A stretch of DNA of 63,740 nt, filler included, from Welwitschia mirabilis (Eukaryota): assembly GCA_051453625.1 (NCBI GenBank). It is 5 parts of one record of this genome, joined end to end, with 100 filler letters (N's around TTAATTAATTAA, not from the genome) between each part and the next. Parts side by side here need not be neighbours in the genome. Positions count along the whole stretch, not along the records: positions 27,995 to 53,920 come from JBOZIK010000001.1; 4 more parts are not named here. One strand, 5' to 3'. This document shows positions 27,895 to 62,114 of this stretch, piece by piece. The translations under genes and the position numbers were made by a program. The notes below the pieces were generated by a model. The model did no database searches. It saw only the letters and a program-made list of their open reading frames with translations, and was not told where the DNA came from. Numbering within the stretch: the stretch's first letter is position 1; each line of letters opens with the position of its first letter.

Positions 27895-27994
27895 NNNNNN
27901 NNNNNNNNNNNNNNNNNNNNNNNNNNNNNNNNNNNNNNTTAATTAATTAANNNNNNNNNNNNNNNNNNNNNNNNNNNNNNNNNNNNNNNNNNNN
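27895..27994. other. Artificial contig spacer (N-TTAATTAATTAA-N); also at 53921-54020, 57796-57895 and 61848-61947
   Basis: The identical 12-mer, with stops in all six frames, is centred in 100-bp N blocks four times. Confidence 0.97.
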
Positions 27995-28060
27995 ATTCAC
28001 CAATACTTTTGCCATCTCCTATGGCTTAATACTTTGTCGCCTCCTGCGACTGTGTGGGTG

Positions 28061-48800: not shown

Positions 48801-50064
48801 TTTATGTTTGTATTTATAGGTAGAAATAGAAATAGAGAAATCAAGTAAGTTGTTAGCTGATAACAGTAGCTAATCCAGATGCATAAGGATAATGATAAAA
48901 TTTCAGCCAAAGTATGTTGCATGAATGGTTTATTTTCCTATGGTTAATAAAGGAAAATAACACATGGNNNNNNNNNNNNNNNNNNNNNNNNNNNNNNNNN
49001 NNNNNNNNNNNNNNNNNNNNNNNNNNNNNNNNNNNNNNNNNNNNNNNNNNNNNNNNNNNNNNNNNNNNNNNNNNNNNNNNNNNNNNNNNNNNNNTTTTTC
49101 GTACTGTAATGCTTTGCTATTTCATTTGCTTTTGTAACAACTCTCAAAATCATTAAAACTGTTGTACTCCTCAAGGAACAAAATCACAGAGACATGCAAA
49201 CATTTACAAAAAACATGATAGTTTACATCAAAGTATACAGACTGCATCATCCAACTTGCACTATAAGTTGTTAAATGCATGCAGTGGTAATGATTCAGTT
49301 GTGGGTCATAGAAGCCAATACGATTAATTCACGCTGAATGGTTAACAGATTACATACATTTGACCAAAATAAATATAAAGCTGAATTCAGCTTGCTGATT
49401 CAAAAGAGACAAAAAGCATAAGCAAAGTCAACAAATTTTCTATGAGCCAAATTATTCAAAGTTATATCAAAAACAGATGAAAATCTCAAGGCAGCGGCCA
49501 CTAATAAGGCCTTATGGAGGCTAAGGCATTGAATCAAAGTAGTTTCTAAACTGTAATCACAAAAATTATGTCAGCACGACAGTGGTTTGGATCTGTGTGA
49601 AGAAACCTCTATGTAATATGTGAAGCTTCCAATATATTAAATGCAATACCCCGTACAATTTGATTTCTTTCATAATTCAGCCCTACATCTCAAAAGCCAG
49701 CTACCTCAGACAATAACGATAAATCAAGATAAATGGAAAAATCCTGCTTTAAGCTGAGAATTAAAAAATAGCCAATGCACAATCTCAGGTGCATGTACTA
49801 AAATAGAAATATTCACCAAATTTGTTCCACTTGCAATTTTTGACGTTATAAAAAAGAAACAGTACTCAATGAAAGGCATGCCTCCTGCAAAAAGAAGCCT
49901 GAACATTCTTCAGGCATTCAGACAAATATTTCAAGATTCCATTGAACAACTCCTCTTGAAAGTTTATAAAAAACATGGAAATACATCATTTCGCAGATCC
50001 TTTGAAACAATTGTACACCCAATACTGAATTAAGAATAATAGTCAGGTGGAAAGTAAGAAAGAC

Positions 50065-50138
50065 TCAATCTTCCATAGGCACTGCTGGAATGGCCCATCA
50101 GTCTTCTTCAATTGCCTTAAGAACAGAAACTGGGGATA
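50065..50138 (-). pseudogene. Tandem duplicate of the bystin terminal exon (AC acceptor, premature stop)
   Basis: 116-bp period. It reads (I)SPVSVLKAIEED*WAIPAVPMED*, with CGA>TGA at 50098-50100, and is preceded by ACTTTGAC TATTGAC|. Confidence 0.9.
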
Positions 50139-50180
50139 GTCAATAGTCAAAGTAATATTTGGATGGGCAGTAAGAAAGAC

Positions 50181-53100
50181 TCAATCTTCCATAGGCACTG
50201 CCGGAACATCCCATCGGTCTTCTTCTATAGGCTTAATAACAGAAACTGGGGACACTAAAAAGGTCAAAGAAAACTACACAGGAATATAGCCATTGCTATG
50301 ATACAGAAAATCTACTGAAAACTACAGTATAAATGAGCTTCAGTGTTTTATCGATCCAAATATTTACATTCACAATTTACGTTCACAAATTAACTTCTGA
50401 AACTATGATCAACAGGAAAGTGAAATCTACAGATCACATTTCTGCACAAAAAACTGAAAATATCAATGAGGGCAAAGAGAAAAATCCCTCTATAAAATTC
50501 TCTCCAAATTCTTGGCTAATAGGATTAAAACAATATTTCAAGCTTGGTTTATAAGGAACAAGCAGGGTTTATTAAAGGGAGGCAAATCGCAGATCAGGCA
50601 ATGTTGGTGTAAGAATTAATCCATTCAGCAATACATTGGAACAAAAAGCAAACAGCTTTGAAATTAGACATTAGTAAAACATATGATAGGATTAATTGGA
50701 ATTACATAAGTTTAGTACAAGAAGGAATGAAGTTTCCAAAAAATTGGNNNNNNNNNNNNNNNNNNNNNNNNNNNNNNNNNNNNNNNNNNNNNNNNNNNNN
50801 NNNNNNNNNNNNNNNNNNNNNNNNNNNNNNNNNNNNNNNNNNNNNNNNNNNNNNNNNNNNNNNNNNNNNNNNNNNNNNNNNNNNNNNNNNNNNNNNNNNN
50901 NNNNNNNNNNNNNNNNNNNNNNNNNNNNNNNNNNNNNNNNNNNNNNNNNNNNNNNNNNNNNNNNNNNNNNNNNNNNNNNNNNNNNNNNNNNNNNNNNNNN
51001 NNNNNNNNNNNNNNNNNNNNNNNNNNNNNNNNNNNNNNNNNNNNNNNNNNNNNNNNNNNNNNNNNNNNNNNNNNNNNNNNNNNNNNNNNNNNNNNNNNNN
51101 NNNNNNNNNNNNNNNNNNNNNNNNNNNNNNNNNNNNNNNNNNNNNNNNNNNNNNNNNNNNNNNNNNNNNNNNNNNNNNNNNNNNNNNNNNNNNNNNNNNN
51201 NNNNNNNNNNNNNNNNNNNNNNNNNNNNNNNNNNNNNNNNNNNNNNNNNNNNNNNNNNNNNNNNNNNNNNNNNNNNNNNNNNNNNNNNNNNNNNNNNNNN
51301 NNNNNNNNNNNNNNNNNNNNNNNNNNNNNNNNNNNNNNNNNNCTTCTATTTAATGCAATGTTATGTTTCACCTAATCACTAATAGTGAAAAAGTCCAAAC
51401 TAAGAGAGATTTCTATGGGCTGATAATGGTAGAAAGGGATTCATGCAACCAATTGGGATACAATATGTAAAAGCTGGAAGAATGGGGCATGGGGTTTCAA
51501 ACATCTTCTTGGGTTCAATTATGCTTTAATGGGCAAGTTAAGATGGTAACTTATGAACACCCCATAAACCATGGGTTCGAGCTATGGTGAAGAAATACTT
51601 ATATGGTGACGTGGATTTCTTTAGGGTCCCATGAATTAAAGTAATGATGATGCAATACTTATATGGTGACTTTTGGTGGCCCCATGAAGCATACAAGCAT
51701 CGCCAATTTGGACAGACAGAGAAAAAGTAAGAACATGGTTCAATCAACATATTAATTAGCACCATTTAAAAAACGCATTAAGGAGTGAGCAATATTCACA
51801 AGGCAAAGTNNNNNNNNNNNNNNNNNNNNNNNNNNNNNNNNNNNNNNNNNNNNNNNNNNNNNNNNNNNNNNNNNNNNNNNNNNNNNNNNNNNNNNNNNNN
51901 NNNNNNNNNAGTCTCACTCTCCATTTACTTATATGCCTCAATTTATATTTCAACTTTTGAGTTACAACTTTCATGTAAATGGACTAGTACTACCAAGGTC
52001 TAACTTCCCTTTACAACATTATAACATATCAATATTCAATAAGATAACATAAGAATTCTAATAGAACATTTGGTTTCACACCATAAGCATTGAGATGCAG
52101 CCTAGTGTAAGTGGGTATATGGGAATCAAAACTGTGATATTGAATCTCGGATAAATAAAGGATAGAGGGTTAAAAGAGATACAACTGCCCAAAGACCCAC
52201 AATATGGCAAAAGAAAGTAGTCTAGAAGGATGTGAGTCATGTGACATTATACTAAGACACACATTTAACACACTTATAATGTATATTAAATAAAAATGTC
52301 TTTTGGTTATTGACCTATGCCTTTAATTGGAAGAATAACTATAAGTCGTGATGATGGCACCTTAATAGATAGTTAAGCTTATGCTACAATGATGTGACTA
52401 GGGTCTATTTTGTTGGTGTGGTAACTGAATTGAATGCCACTGCCATGATGTAGCTAGTATGTTTAACTCATAGAGTAAGCAAATTAGCAAACCAAAGATG
52501 AACTAGACAGAAGCTGATATGGCAATAGGCTAAAGCAAATATGCGATACATGGAACACTTCCATGATTCCATGAATTAAAGTTATGACGATGAAATACTT
52601 ATACGGTGACATGGATTTCTTTAGGTGGCCCCATGAATTATACAAGCATCACCAATTTCGAGAGACACAGAAAAAGTAAGAGCATGGTTCAATCAACATA
52701 TTAATTAGCAACATTTAAAAAACGCATTAAGGAGTGAGCAATATTCACAAGGCAAAGTTTATAATACTAGATATAATTATCAAAGGGACAGAATTCATTC
52801 CATCTGGACTAATTGATTATTGACACCTCAGTTACAGTTGCTAACATTAAAGGTACATAAGCAGCAACTAAATGCCAAAACAAGATGATCTCAACTTAAC
52901 ATAATTGATAGCAGTCAGTGCCAGTTATGTGGAAAAGACAAGGAGAAGATACCTCATCTTTTACTTCACTGCGAATTCATAGTGCCATTCTGGAATAATG
53001 TGAGTCAGTTCAAGGGATTTCTTTCCCTTAACCCAAGGTTCAGCAGTGATGACAGAGCTAGAGCTAGTTATAAAGGGCGCAGAGAGAAAATACAGATAGC

Positions 53101-53773
53101 AAAGTTTTTTTGCATGTCTTGAAGCATGATTTGGCAAGGGAATCAAAAGATTGAAGGAAAAACAGTGCATGCTGAATCATGTTGGACAAGAGAGTCCAAA
53201 CGTGGTTTGAGCTATGAAGCCTGAGAGGGCTATTACGATTGTTAATTGTTGGAACGTTAGAATAGAATGAGTAAATGTTTGACTTGAAGTGACTCTGAAG
53301 CTGGATGGAGAATCTAACTGCCATCTGATTATTGTAGCATTTTTTATTTACTGTTGTAGTGGGACTGAATGAATCATACAGTTAGTATCGGTGGAATAAA
53401 AGGTCATTTTTTGGTTGGATTTTCCAGAAGTGTGTCCCGGCCACTATAGAACCAGGTTATTTGATTTTCAGATGGAAAAAAAAAATATGGCAAAACAAAC
53501 ACTGCATAAAATAAAAAAAGGACTCTTCAATAGTCAAGAAGGATATTATCAGTCATAACATCTTTCTCGCCTCTATTCCTGCTGCTATCCAATTCTCTCA
53601 GAATTTCAGGAGTAACCTGTATGAAAATATCATTTCATTCGTAAACAACTCTTTTAAATACTCAAATCATACTTTAATTAATCATAATGAAATTGTTTAC
53701 CAAGTAATGCTTCTGATATTTGACCAAGTTCTTCAAGCCATTCTTCTGATTCCTCAGCAACTCATTTTTGTAC
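50181..53773 (-). CDS. ENP1: Bystin (ENP1/BYSL), last three coding exons of an apparently intact gene: 53773-53701, 53616-53547, 50254-50181; upstream exons lie beyond the contig end
   Basis: Spliced translation (R)YKNELLRNQKNGLKNLVKYQKHYL|VTPEILRELDSSRNRGEKDVMTD|MSPVSVIKPIEEDRWDVPAVPMED* matches the plant bystin C-terminus. There are no internal stops and the phases are consistent (73, 70 and 74 nt). Confidence 0.92.
50255..53546 (-). other. U12-type (minor spliceosome) intron, AT-AG as read to the proximal exon copy
   Basis: The donor is |ATATCCTTCT at 53546. A branch-point-like TCTTTGAC lies 8 nt before TTTTAG| at 50255. I found no nearby GT donor that restores the frame. Confidence 0.85.
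50552..51630 (+). mobile_element. L1-type LINE ORF2 (RT) fragment, antisense within the bystin U12 intron
   Basis: EQAGFIKGRQIADQ...KLDISKTYDRINW before the gap; FLWAD...NWDTICK...GFKHLLGFNYALMGKLRW...PWVRAMVKKY after it. Confidence 0.88.
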
Positions 53774-55440
53774 CTGCATATTTCAAAATCAAAAACTTGC
53801 TATAAGATTTATTTCATGCATACATGCTATACTATATTCAGAATGAAGGAATCCTGCTCATATATAGTTTCGGTCAAAAGCAGTCCTTGTCTTCCAGGTA
53901 TTTTATTATAGGAAATGATANNNNNNNNNNNNNNNNNNNNNNNNNNNNNNNNNNNNNNNNNNNNTTAATTAATTAANNNNNNNNNNNNNNNNNNNNNNNN
54001 NNNNNNNNNNNNNNNNNNNNTAATCAAACCACAAAAGAAAACAAGAAGAATGGGCATAAGATAACATAAACAAAAGATAGTTCACCAATCTAATATTTTA
54101 ACTTAGTAGACCCTCATGAAAGTAATCATAAAATCTCTTGATGTAAAAAATGCATGACTTAATATACAAAAATTCCATTCGATAAGGTAGTGATTATGAC
54201 GATGCTAGAATAAAATTCTTTAAAGAATGAATGATCAAACCAAATAATTACTTAAAAATAAAATATNNNNNNNNNNNNNNNNNNNNNNNNNNNNNNNNNN
54301 NNNNNNNNNNNNNNNNNNNNNNNNNNNNNNNNNNNNNNNNNNNNNNNNNNNNNNNNNNNNNNNNNNNNNNNNNNNNNNNNNNNNNNNNNNNNNNNNNNNN
54401 NNNNNNNNNNNNNNNNNNNNNNNNNNNNNNNNNNNNNNNNNNNNNNNNNNNNNNNNNNNNNNNNNNNNNNNNNNNNNNNNNNNNNNNNNNNNNNNNNNNN
54501 NNNNNNNNNNNNNNNNNNNNNNNNNNNNNNNNNNNNNNNNNNNNNNNNNNNNNNNNNNNNNNNNNNNNNNNNNNNNNNNNNNNNNNNNNNNNNNNNNNNN
54601 NNNNNNNNNNNNNNNNNNNNNNNNNNNNNNNNNNNNNNNNNNNNNNNNNNNNNNNNNNNNNNNNNNNNNNNNNNNNNNNNNNNNNNNNNNNNNNNNNNNN
54701 NNNNNNNNNNNNNNNNNNNNNNNNNNNNNNNNNNNNNNNNNNNNNNNNNNNNNNNNNNNNNNNNNNNNNNNNNNNNNNNNNNNNNNNNNNNNNNNNNNNN
54801 NNNNNNNNNNNNNNNNNNNNNNNNNNNNNNNNNNNNNNNNNNNNNNNNNNNNNNNNNNNNNNNNNNNNNNNNAAGTAATTCCATATTAATCTTTTAAAGG
54901 GAAAAGATAAGAGAGAATTTAGAGAGCTTTGCTCATGAAATTTCAAATTTTTTCCATTTACTTCTTGCAATTCTCAAGAAGTCAAGTCAGAAATCTCAAT
55001 AGAGCCAAAACAAAAAAATGTATTTTTTCAAAATAACAAAAACATCAAAATTTTATTAACTATCGTCTTCTTGTTATCTAGATGACAGAGAGGATGACAA
55101 ATGGACAGAAACAAAAAATTATTAGAAGCAAAAATTTATGAGAAAACTGGAAAACATAATAAACCTGATTATCATCCACCTTATCGTGGGGNNNNNNNNN
55201 NNNNNNNNNNNNNNNNNNNNNNNNNNNNNNNNNNNNNNNNNNNNNNNNNNNNNNNNNNNNNNNNNNNNNNNNNNNNNNNNNNNNNNNNNNNNNNNNNNNN
55301 NNNNNNNNNNNNNNNNNNNNNNNNNNNNNNNNNNNNNNNNNNNNNNNNNNNNNNNNNNNNNNNNNNNNNNNNNNNNGCAGCAAAAGAAACATGGCTTCAA
55401 GATTTTTACAAAAATGAGGTCCAAACCAAATATTCACTAA

Positions 55441-57745
55441 CTAATAAAACATGAAATGTATGCAATCATTTTTTAGTAAAATCAATTGAAAGAAAAGAGA
55501 ATAAAAAGATAATGCCTTGATAGCACAATTTTCAGAATTCAAATAAGAAATAAAAGAATCATAAGTGTCATTGAAAAATGATCTCTTATGAAAATTTTTA
55601 GTATCTTGGGCATCATTGTGAAAGGCATATGAAAAAGGACTCAAAGAAAGTTTCTAATATGATTTTGAAGGATCTCTAAAATGTTTTTTACCATTTAATT
55701 NNNNNNNNNNNNNNNNNNNNNNNNNNNNNNNNNNNNNNNNNNNNNNNNNNNNNNNNNNNNNNNNNNNNNNNNNNNNNNNNNNNNNNNNNNNNNNNNNNNN
55801 NNNNNNNNNNNNNNNNNNNNNNNNNNNNNNNNNNNNNNNNNNNNNNNNNNNNNNNNNNNNNNNNNNNNNNNNNNNNNNNNNNNNNNNNNNNNNNNNNNNN
55901 NNNNNNNNNNNNNNNNNNNNNNNNNNNNNNNNNNNNNNNNNNNNNNNNNNNNNNNNNNNNNNNNNNNNNNNNNNNNNNNNNNNNNNNNNNNNNNNNNNNN
56001 NNNNNNNNNNNNNNNNNNNNNNNNNNNNNNNNNNNNNNNNNNNNNNNNNNNNNNNNNNNNNNNNNNNNNNNNNNNNNNNNNNNNNNNNNNNNNNNNNNNN
56101 NNNNNNNNNNNNNNNNNNNNNNNNNNNNNNNNNNNNNNNNNNNNNNNNNNNNNNNNNNNNNNNNNNNNNNNNNNNNNNNNNNNNNNNNNNNNNNNNNNNN
56201 NNNNNNNNNNNNNNNNNNNNNNNNNNNNNNNNNNNNNNNNNNNNNNNNNNNNNNNNNNNNNNNNNNNNNNNNNNNNNNNNNNNNNNNNNNNNNNNNNNNN
56301 NNNNNNNNNNNNNNNNNNNNNNNNNNNNNNNNNNNNNNNNNNNNNNNNNNNNNNNNNNNNNNNNNNTTTGATTTAGAACATGGATCCTTAAGGAGAAAAC
56401 AAGGCTTTTTCAATTTTGCATACTTACATGACAATCTGTTTCCATAAGCATTAATGTAAGAGATAAAAGTTCATATAACTCATAGAAAAAGAATCTCTTA
56501 TCAAACTTATGATGTGAAGGATTTGAAACATAAATTGTATTTAGAGCTTAATATTGAACATGAAAGGCTTCATTTAATATCCAAGGATTTATAAAAAACT
56601 TCTTAGGGNNNNNNNNNNNNNNNNNNNNNNNNNNNNNNNNNNNNNNNNNNNNNNNNNNNNNNNNNNNNNNNNNNNNNNNNNNNNNNNNNNNNNNNNNNNN
56701 NNNNNNNNTTTTGCATAAGCACATGACATTTTTTTTCCATAAGTATTAATGTAAGAGACAAAAAATTCATACAACTCATGGAAAAACAATCTCTTATCAA
56801 ACTTATGACGTGAAGGATTTGAAACATAAATTGTATTTAGAGCTTAATATTGAACATGAAAGGCTTTATTTAATATCCAAGTATTTGTAAGAAACTTCTT
56901 AGTGTAAGAGATTAAGATAGGTTTAACATACCTAAGAACCTTTTTAATATTTAATTTCAAACATGGATTGGGATAAAGAAGATATGATTTTCCCCAATTA
57001 AGAATTCCAAGATATTCCAAATTTTATTTTTGAAAAAAATGACTAATAGAAGCACATGATAAAGTTGACTTTGCAAATGAGGAAAAGATATTATTTTTTG
57101 CACATGAAGTTATAAAAGGAAGAGGTTGGGAGATTTTTGAACTCAAGTCCTTAAGATGATGTGGCTCATACTTTCAAGGACAAAAATGTGATTTAGAGAG
57201 GTACTTGTTTGAATACTTTCTTCATTGATTATATCTTCCTCTTCTTTATGATTAATAATTTGTTACTTTTTATTTTGTTGAGAATCATTATTCTTTTCTA
57301 AGTTGGTGGATTCCTCAAAAATATCATTAGAAATATTGTAGAAAGGAAAGGTCTCATTATTTGATGAAAGATATTCTAATGTTTCTTGGCTTGATTCCTC
57401 TTTCTCTCTANNNNNNNNNNNNNNNNNNNNNNNNNNNNNNNNNNNNNNNNNNNNNNNNNNNNNNNNNNNNNNNNNNNNNNNNNNNNNNNNNNNNNNNNNN
57501 NNNNNNNNNNCTTTCTCTCTAAATAACGTCATTAATTCTAAACTATAATCCTCAGTTAACTTGAGTTGATCATTTTCTATTGATTCTGTTTTAATGCTTA
57601 TCTCCATTAATTTCAAAAGTTGAATCTCATATATCGGTGGAACTTCTTCATCTTTATAAAACATGTGAAAGTTTAGGATATGATCTAAGATTTCAATTCC
57701 ATTTTCTTCTTCATCGTATTCACTATTCTCATCATTTTGTTGCAT
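55441..57745 (-). pseudogene. Unidentified decayed ORF with an acidic N-terminal part and repeated peptide units, probably retroelement-derived
   Basis: Acidic ORF 57263-57745, then frames repeating AFH...(K/N)F(D/H)KRxFFxxxYxxFxSYxN at ~56870-56740, ~56570-56450 and ~55630-55535. The contig is heavily gapped. Confidence 0.4.
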
Positions 57746-59136
57746 GTTATTGCTTTCATTAGAAGGGGAAATGTGATCATCATTTCTATCATAGANNNNN
57801 NNNNNNNNNNNNNNNNNNNNNNNNNNNNNNNNNNNNNNNTTAATTAATTAANNNNNNNNNNNNNNNNNNNNNNNNNNNNNNNNNNNNNNNNNNNNAAGTT
57901 TTTACATTTAAAGAGATCCTGTCATTTATAACTAAAATAGATAACTTACATAATACATCACATTAGTATAATGGAAGTAGACATGAATGTCATATTATCA
58001 TTAAAGTCTATGAATATGAGACTTAAGTTGCTTTGTAAAGGAATATAGGAACCAAAAATAAATAACAAACTCAAAGAAATAAAGTATAATGCATAATGCA
58101 AGATGAAACTATTCTAAATGCAAATGCAAAATGGAACTAAATCTACTTGCTTTTAGCCTTAACAAAGGCTACCTTTGATAATCTATATCATTTAATAAAT
58201 TATCATTAGATCAAGGGCAACATATACTATAAGGATCATCAAATAATCTATAATGAAAATATGAAAATAAAACAAATTTTATATTAAGAAAGAGTAACAA
58301 GCATCTTAATTACAAATAGCTGGGTATTAATGGAGAATACACAACCCTTCACCAAGTGCACATCTTTCTACAATGATCAAATAGATCTCCCACCCTTTTA
58401 TCTCCTGTCACAAGAATTTTTGGTGCAACAAAGATGAGAAGAAGAGTCAAATGGGGATTTATTTATAACAACTCCTAGAAAAAAAAGACAAATGATAAGT
58501 CTATTTAGGTGTATTCATTTATAACTTAGAAATAAATGAAATGATTAAGGATAGCTATTAGAGTCAGTTACAATACAGACAACAAGAGGGATGATAGAAC
58601 ATTATAGAATATAACTTAGATCAATGACTCATCAGTGATTCAATGGTCCACATCAGTAGTTATCATTCTACCTATCATGAAGATGACGAAGCGGATGTCT
58701 TCTTTTGTCATTTTCTTAAAGAGAACTTTAGAATTTTTGTCAATAATCCTTCTTCAAAGCTTTGTGTATCAAAAAGTGCCTTTAACACATCAAATTTGGA
58801 TAAGAATCACACTTTTCCAAGATTTCCTCTTGTATCTTCAAAATCCTCAGAATTGCACCTAAACNNNNNNNNNNNNNNNNNNNNNNNNNNNNNNNNNNNN
58901 NNNNNNNNNNNNNNNNNNNNNNNNNNNNNNNNNNNNNNNNNNNNNNNNNNNNNNNNNNNNNNNNCATCAAATTTGGATAAGAATCACACTTTTCCAAGAT
59001 TTCCTCTTGTATCTTCAAAATCCTCAGAATTGCACCTAAACTTATATAAAAGTCCTGTAAAACAACTTATAAAACCCCATCAAATAACCATAAATTGACA
59101 ATGAAATGGGAACTAATAAGGCTAAGTGGGGGGCTA

Positions 59137-61847: not shown

Positions 61848-62114
61848 NNNNNNNNNNNNNNNNNNNNNNNNNNNNNNNNNNNNNNNNNNNNTTAATTAAT
61901 TAANNNNNNNNNNNNNNNNNNNNNNNNNNNNNNNNNNNNNNNNNNNNATTTCCTTAAATCCCACATTGATTAGGCATTTTGTTGTAGAGGACATGTGTCC
62001 TATAAATAAGTGGGTATTGTAAATGCTTTGATATATCGAATAAAAGAGGTTTCTCCCAATATTTCTTCAGTTACTAATGTATTCTGACCATACAAATGAG
62101 AAGTGTTTTGTTGC

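Follow-up and report, generated by a model that had tools for sequence, protein, structure and literature searches.

The stretch of DNA analysed here (the window, 63,740 nucleotides with filler) consists of five parts of one record of the Welwitschia mirabilis genome (assembly GCA_051453625.1), positions 27,995 to 53,920 coming from JBOZIK010000001.1. On its minus strand it shows three exons, with which a plant gene for bystin (ENP1/BYSL) ends on its 3' side. The last intron of this gene carries the signals of a minor (U12-type) intron and begins with AT; it is followed by two tandem copies of the terminal coding exon, the proximal one preceded by AG and the distal one by AC. Here, I show that RNA joints of the form represented in the window remove an AT-AG intron and enter the proximal copy, and I argue that the distal copy very probably preserves, within the 3' untranslated region (UTR), the AC acceptor that was ancestral to this intron. 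The minus strand of 49900-53800 was read directly for exons, splice sites and reading frames, and this reading bears out all the coordinates and letters given in the preliminary description of the locus.

The penultimate exon, the intron and its two acceptors are laid out as follows.

53547..53616, minus strand: penultimate exon, encoding VTPEILRELDSSRNRGEKDVMTD plus one base (phase 1), ending ...ACT GAT A
50255..53546, minus strand: intron of minor type, beginning AT and ending AG, placed by RNA joints; the assembly gives it 3292 nt, two N gaps included
53539..53546, minus strand: U12-type 5' splice site ATATCCTT, matching [AG]TATCCTT directly at the exon end, where the RNA joint starts
50263..50270, minus strand: proximal branch-site-like box TCTTTGAC, with one mismatch to TCCTTRAC
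50255..50256, minus strand: AG 3' terminus, the used acceptor (joint 50254|53547 in the runs X20, X23 and X11 described below; X2 contig 50172-50747, 0 differences)
50181..50254, minus strand: proximal terminal coding exon, (M)SPVSVIKPIEEDRWDVPAVPMED, stop at 50183-50181
50146..50153, minus strand: distal branch-site-like box ACTTTGAC, 8 nt before AC, with two mismatches to TCCTTGAC
50139..50140, minus strand: AC 3' terminus of the distal copy, a probable relic, homologous to the AC of 19/19 orthologues, no use detected
50065..50138, minus strand: distal, decayed terminal exon, part of the transcribed 3' UTR, with a premature TGA at 50100-50098 where the proximal copy has CGA
49950..50180, minus strand: 3' UTR, its end approximate, from the fall in depth

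Splice signals of the last intron

The long intron starts ATATCCTTCT at 53546 and ends TCTTTGACCTTTTTAG at 50255. Taken alone, the octamer ATATCCTT is unremarkable in this AT-rich window, where it occurs 10 times against 5.7 expected, a count reached by 6 of 100 shuffles; its weight comes from its position at a phase-1 exon end, from its conservation in orthologues and from the RNA junction. The AT donor of U12 consensus after GAT A, which had been proposed from the sequence, is confirmed by the RNA joint at 53546. From the branch A of the proximal box (50264) to the last intron base the distance is 9 nt, at the short edge of what is seen in orthologues (10-14 nt by the same count).

With the A carried over from the penultimate exon, the proximal exon encodes MSPVSVIKPIEEDRWDVPAVPMED and then a stop. 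This tail aligns with orthologue tails of the form ..SP.SVI.K.IEED[RK][FW]D.P.VPMEED, and the full tail does belong to the AG copy, as had been claimed, the AC copy meeting its premature stop.

A pyrimidine-rich run, TTTTCTTTGACCTTTTTAG, precedes the proximal acceptor, as might be expected if the major (U2-type) spliceosome took out the intron in spite of the AT at its start. There is very little chance of this, for ATATCCTT is the U12 consensus, a TCCTTRAC-like box stands 9 nt from the acceptor, and the orthologous intron has full U12 signals in 19/19 loci; among U2-type introns, those starting with AT have another 5' consensus. By its 5' splice site, its branch box and its orthologous U12 intron, the window's intron classes on sequence grounds as U12-type, and the minor spliceosome is predicted to do the splicing. 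In a review, U12-type introns are defined by their 5' splice site together with their branch site, not by their termini, and the optimum distance from the branch to the 3' splice site is given as 11-13 nt (PMC3584512).

A tandem duplication of the terminal exon

The duplicated block takes in the last coding exon together with the branch site and 3' splice site that precede it and the beginning of the 3' UTR that follows. A repeat search pairs 50037-50146 with 50153-50262 (110 nt, 83% identity, spacing 116 bp), and blastn gives 82.5% over 120 nt with E = 4.5e-29 and no third copy in the window; the 116-bp duplicate escaped Tandem Repeats Finder. These searches agree with the earlier claim of a last exon present twice, 116 bp apart, each copy with a U12-like branch sequence.

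The two exon copies differ at ~10 positions. The distal copy reads ACTTTGACTATTGAC, then TATCCCCAG..., and its translation, ISPVSVLKAIEED (I-SPVSVLKAIEED), runs into the premature TGA; the relic of its terminal TGA ends at 50065.

Acceptor use in RNA

A run search with 49800-50330 (531 bp) listed 24 runs, 13 of which hold half or more of its words; they include 'DNA?' contig runs of two organism labels, with 0.94 of the words each, and raw RNA sequencing (RNA-seq) of the same species label. No indexed run listed as containing the words is on record as RNA, and the RNA evidence comes from the raw-read runs of the same species label. Four runs were compared with 49700-53820, namely X20 and X23 (RNA-seq, from different studies), X11 (contigs, guessed to be RNA) and X2 ('DNA?' contigs), a joint being listed from 3 reads per run or one contig upwards.

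For the exact joint 53547>50254 there are 10 reads in X20 and 3 in X23, to which X11 adds one contig (depth 4.6). The joint skips CT..AT on the plus strand, that is AT..AG in the sense of the gene, with a positional ambiguity of 0, so that an mRNA junction removing a genomic AT...AG intron is directly observed and the proposal that the full-length mRNA arises in this way holds for the form found in the window. The same junction is found in a second expressed form of the gene, listed as 50252|53547 owing to TA for CA at 50253-50254 (the exon of the second form starts TATCCCC, that of the window TGTCCCC), with 41 reads in X20, 37 in X23 and an X11 contig of depth 160.9. The proximal site thus totals 51 reads in X20 and 40 in X23. 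Junction reads reach 67-71 nt on their shorter side, which leaves no ambiguity as to the copy they enter, the proximal one.

At this threshold, none of X20, X23 and X11 has a listed joint to 50138, the distal AC acceptor. The preliminary description had considered that both acceptors might be used, so that bystin isoforms would differ in their 3' UTRs and in having or lacking the last 11 residues, and the distal copy indeed keeps the canonical AT-AC pairing and the branch-like ACTTTGAC; the choice of U12-type 3' splice sites is, moreover, described as error-prone in the review already cited (PMC3584512). The RNA does not bear this out, for the two acceptors are not seen joined to one donor, the 51 and 40 reads all favouring the proximal site, and the distal box combines two mismatches to TCCTTGAC with a distance of only 8 nt from AC; the use of both acceptors is accordingly most unlikely. 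Two further candidates were dropped, as no such joint is listed for either of them: the CAG at 50245, which would be an acceptor in frame, and GAT|GTTATG within the exon, a GT donor from which either exon copy would be read into a stop.

Summed depth in X20 is ~89 over 50114-50251, 54 over 49976-50113, 13 over 49838-49975 and 1.6 over 49700-49837. The peak over 49976-50251 indicates that the mRNA runs through the distal copy as part of its 3' UTR, and one X11 contig (50061-50201) spans the junction between the two copies. The distal copy is transcribed solely as 3' UTR.

Orthologous introns in plant bystin genes

The comparison of intron termini and exon copy number among orthologues, called for at the outset, was made by scanning metagenome contigs for the reverse complement of T-P-E-I-x-R-E-L and then for RTATCCTT within 25-55 nt. 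Of the 26 loci obtained (L001-L026), 21 are plant bystin genes and five (L003, L006, L008, L009, L012) are chance matches. All 21 bystin loci share cag|GTT ACN CCN..., encode VTPEI.REL..S.NRGEK.., and have the exon end in phase 1 followed by ATATCCTT; the first intron base is A in each of them, although the pattern permitted G or A. Pfam Bystin is found on upstream exons in L019 (E = 1.1e-54) and L013 (E = 9e-25).

The last exon is reached in 19 of the 21 loci, L011 having just 175 nt downstream and L021 showing no tail motif in 848 nt. In 19/19 (13 distinct sequences, with grass-like and dicot-like tails) an in-frame AC stands at the homologous base before a single last exon, and the branch site is TCCTTGAC, TCCTTAAC or TTCTTAAC, with its A 10-14 nt before the last intron base. 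Intron lengths range from 107 to 723 nt, and the six grass-like loci offer no in-frame AG candidate. In the alignment, the orthologous ...TAC| lines up with TATTGAC| of the distal copy and TTTTTAG| of the proximal one. As AC is shared by 19/19 orthologues and the distal copy, parsimony makes AT-AC the ancestral state and the proximal AG the derived one; the notion of the AC copy as a decayed older state fits well with this result.

Probable origin of the AT-AG intron

The explanation that I regard as very probable is that the last bystin intron is a conserved U12-type intron, ancestrally AT-AC. A block of ~110 nt would have been duplicated in tandem in this lineage while the acceptor was AC, and the upstream (proximal) copy would later have changed the last intron base from C to G. 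The proximal site is the only acceptor detectably used, and removal of the AT-AG intron yields the window-type mRNA, which encodes the conserved acidic tail. The distal copy, which keeps AC but has a weaker branch match, a shorter branch-to-acceptor distance and the CGA>TGA stop, would be a passenger in the 3' UTR.

Mechanistically, U11/U12 recognition presumably takes place at ATATCCTT and TCTTTGAC, and the first suitable acceptor ~10 nt downstream, here AG, would then be used. The distal site is probably ignored because its box has two mismatches and lies 8 nt from AC, and because the proximal copy is transcribed first. Both this order of events and these reasons for the proximal preference are inferred, and that the duplication let the terminus switch, as had been suggested, is a conjecture as to cause.

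A second expressed form and possible intron retention

The second expressed form of bystin, be it an allele, a homeologue or a paralogue, differs from the window at 18 listed places (in 50040-50253 and 53560-53742), 13 of them in 50040-50253 and 5 in the two upstream exons of the window, its divergence being ~4% in coding sequence and ~6% in the UTR. At position 50229 its letter is present in 55/87 reads of X20 and 49/54 of X23; it dominates the mRNA in both runs, and its letters are absent from the X2 contigs. It shares the duplication (X11 contig 50061-50201, 4 differences) and appears to share the distal TGA as well, no difference being listed at 50098-50100.

Several points weigh against the explanation given above. 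Junction reads of the second form make up 41/51 in X20 and 37/40 in X23, and the end of the intron is not observed there, so that AC may still be the end of the second form's intron; the proof of AT-AG covers the window's own form and no other, the majority form sharing the junction position. In the proximal exon the three differences of the second form (50253, 50229, 50202) all equal the letter of the distal copy, from which it follows that the window's proximal copy carries several derived changes, and AG may be one such change, private to the window's form. The proximal branch box has its one mismatch, and its 9-nt distance is below that of all 19 orthologues. Use of the distal site below ~5% would be compatible with the listing threshold of 3 reads per run. 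Finally, the orthologue scan is biased by its RTATCCTT requirement, which orthologues without a U12 signal escape, and its results speak for the loci recovered and not for all plants.

A related proposal is that AT-AG is limited to a minor, poorly spliced allele or gene copy, that of the window, the main expressed form still being AT-AC at the proximal site. Window-type letters at 50229 amount to ~37% in X20 (32/87) and ~9% in X23 (5/54), and window-type junction reads to 10/51 and 3/40, respectively. Intron depth beside the acceptor (50252-50389) is 8.2 in X20 and 4.2 in X23; the bin of the penultimate exon has 26.5 and 24.7, and depth beyond the 3' end is 1.6 and 0.75. The intron reads show just 3 listed differences to the window in 50255-50747, against 13 for the second form in 50040-50253, and for this reason look window-type. 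Set beside the 10 and 3 spliced reads of the window type, their depth suggests that about half of the window-type RNA is unspliced at the long intron, if the intron reads are indeed window-type and with due regard to the small numbers. Along the same line, AT-AG introns are called disfavoured, poorly spliced intermediates in the review (PMC3584512). On the other hand, the intron of the second form was never seen and its terminus could be either; this form shares the duplication and the distal TGA; and the intron reads, few as they are, may stem from both forms if the introns are alike. A restriction of AT-AG to a minor form is thus a real possibility, although on balance a doubtful one.

I also suggest, tentatively and as a somewhat unlikely scenario, that a switch of termini is in progress: the duplication would have provided two AC acceptors, the proximal one then becoming AG in one form only, which would be spliced in the correct position yet poorly (about half unspliced), while the ~4% different sister form would still be spliced efficiently.

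Upstream exons and identity of the gene

Two further features lie upstream of the penultimate exon.

53701..53773, minus strand: third-from-last bystin exon, encoding (R)YKNELLRNQKNGLKNLVKYQKHYL, from sequence and RNA depth
53617..53700, minus strand: ordinary GT-AG intron of 84 nt, joint 53614>53699 (cut +2), CT..AC on the plus strand

The joint of the 84-nt intron is carried by 45 reads in X20 and by as many in X23, and a homologue of the penultimate exon is present in the 21 plant bystin loci. The frame of exon 53773-53701 matches Pfam Bystin (PF05291) at positions 248-278 of 292 with E = 0.0036 and 17.1 bits; the score stays under the cut-off of 28.8 bits because only ~30 domain positions fall inside the exon. 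A HMMER scan of 1.84 billion proteins with the 41-aa frame of this exon gave two matches, of which one is a repetitive protein and irrelevant. The other, P0002, is a 107-aa fragment 62% identical to the exon frame; it reads RYKNEL...QKHYLVTPEILREL...SPVSFINKTIEEDRWDVPKFPMDED (including VTPEILREL and SPVS.I.K.IEEDRWDVP) and scores above the Bystin threshold (39.8 bits, positions 247-291).

RNA loose ends at 53775 continue into sequence encoding ..ILTFVQ ahead of RYK, and ..ILTFVQ|RYK agrees with the ...WHQSLLTFVQR exon end of orthologous bystin loci. The three window exons are orthologous to genes above the Bystin threshold, namely P0002 and the loci L019 and L013, in which the corresponding exons lie downstream of Bystin-domain exons. 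Pfam found no further bystin exon in 111 minus-strand frames upstream of and around the exons, the 18-nt upstream exon end derived from the RNA loose ends is absent from the window at <=3 mismatches, and with the 41-aa frame a homologous-protein search gave no match and a PDB sequence search 0 matches. The upstream bystin exons are missing from the window because the scaffold carrying the 3' end stops ~150 bp upstream of the exon at 53773.

As for P0002 itself, this public model for the 3' end of a bystin gene from a plant has the sequence ...NRDEKEGKILIFTVSPVSF..., apparently running into the intron region with the AT-AC intron unspliced, and is likely a mis-annotation at the minor intron. 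On a scaffold piece different from that of bystin, a minus-strand open frame of 194 codons (57266-57847) is acidic-rich, has two N runs inside and no Pfam match.

State of the assembly

The window is heavily gapped, with 25 N runs. Spacers of the form N44-TTAATTAATTAA-N44, with stops in six frames, lie at 53921-54020 and 27895-27994, and the same gap pattern indicates others at 57796-57895 and 61848-61947. Such six-frame stop spacers are used to string separate scaffolds together, and the window is a string of this kind. Within the long intron, the 595-N gap at 50748-51342 is bridged by an X2 contig with 594 letters, which means that the size of the gap is right and that its sequence exists in public reads. 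Further upstream in the intron, a 949-bp block (51734-52682) surrounds a 100-N gap, flanked by direct repeats (51670-51809 / 52619-52758) that are 94% identical; it is missing from an X11 contig, which joins 52683 to 51733, and parts of it have a DNA contig depth 4-15 times higher, which marks them as repetitive. This block is either an assembly redundancy or a structural polymorphism.

In view of the N runs, the artificial scaffold joins and the doubtful 949-bp repeat, one might ask whether the duplication or the AG is itself an error of a poor draft. The X2 contigs 49700-50082, 50056-50198, 50172-50747 and 52973-53820 contain 0 letters other than those of the window and reproduce both copies; the bases 50255-56 and 50139-40, whose verification had been advised, appear in them as AG and AC without any difference. 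Reads outside the window itself thus bear out AG, AC, the order in which the copies stand and the 5' splice site, although X2, listed as 'DNA?', may stem from the sample from which the window was assembled. Moreover, RNA reads and the X11 contig span the junction between the copies, 13 runs hold at least half of the words of the 531-bp query, and a difference of 17% between the copies is well beyond what collapsed haplotypes would show. The chance of an assembly error at this point is close to negligible.

Comparison with known introns and significance

Minor introns are very stable, and switches between AT-AC and GT-AG are regarded as infrequent on the ground that mixed intermediates, AT-AG among them, are badly spliced. 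Like other AT-AG minor introns, that of the window has a U12 5' splice site starting with AT, a branch site near the acceptor, and AG in the place of AC; unlike them, it keeps the ancestral AC 116 bp downstream in a duplicate, so that both states are found in one transcript. With the plant bystin AT-AC intron it shares position, phase 1, ATATCCTT and an exon start of the type x-S/G/A-P.... The orthologues, however, have AC, a perfect or near-perfect TCCTTRAC 10-14 nt upstream and a single exon, whereas the window has AG, TCTTTGAC at 9 nt, a duplicate and an intron of ~3.3 kb. Tandem exon duplication can give rise to alternative or mutually exclusive exons, and the window resembles such cases in its short duplicate of an exon with its acceptor signals; it departs from them in that no alternative use is detected, the second copy having a stop and behaving as UTR.

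Human has 11 AT-AG U12-type introns, mouse 8, fly 0 and Arabidopsis 1, and such introns have been proposed to be intermediates in subtype switching (Sheth et al. 2006, PMC1557818). In another study, A-type introns (AT-AC, AT-AA, AT-AG and AT-AT) show higher basal retention (De Wolf et al. 2021, PMC8280824). Among conserved plant minor introns ~4% are non-canonical and ~75% of those are AT-AA (PMC10639083), and it is mainly AT-AC introns on which TTL, the CENATAC homologue of plants, and DROL1 act, according to a preprint (bioRxiv 10.1101/2025.02.25.639993). No mention of a minor intron in bystin was found in the literature, the intron databases U12DB and IAOD lying outside this search, and neither bystin nor BYSL nor At1g31660 is entered in the supplement of PMC2426677. 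The AT-AG class is known and rare; the window adds a new member, unusual in that the 3' UTR still holds the ancestral acceptor as a tandem relic.

To sum up, the locus offers a natural AT-AG intron in an essential ribosome-biogenesis gene, with the ancestral AC adjacent and the ancestral state fixed by many orthologues. Gene finders limited to GT-AG or AT-AC will mis-model the C-terminus of bystin here. The RNA joints show the nearer AG preferred, by what is predicted to be the minor spliceosome, over an AC 116 nt further on, and the locus is a simple template for minigene tests of 3' splice-site choice. If a switch of termini is indeed in progress, it would in addition be a natural allele-resolved system in which to measure the cost of AT-AG and the choice of the minor spliceosome between a near AG and a far AC.

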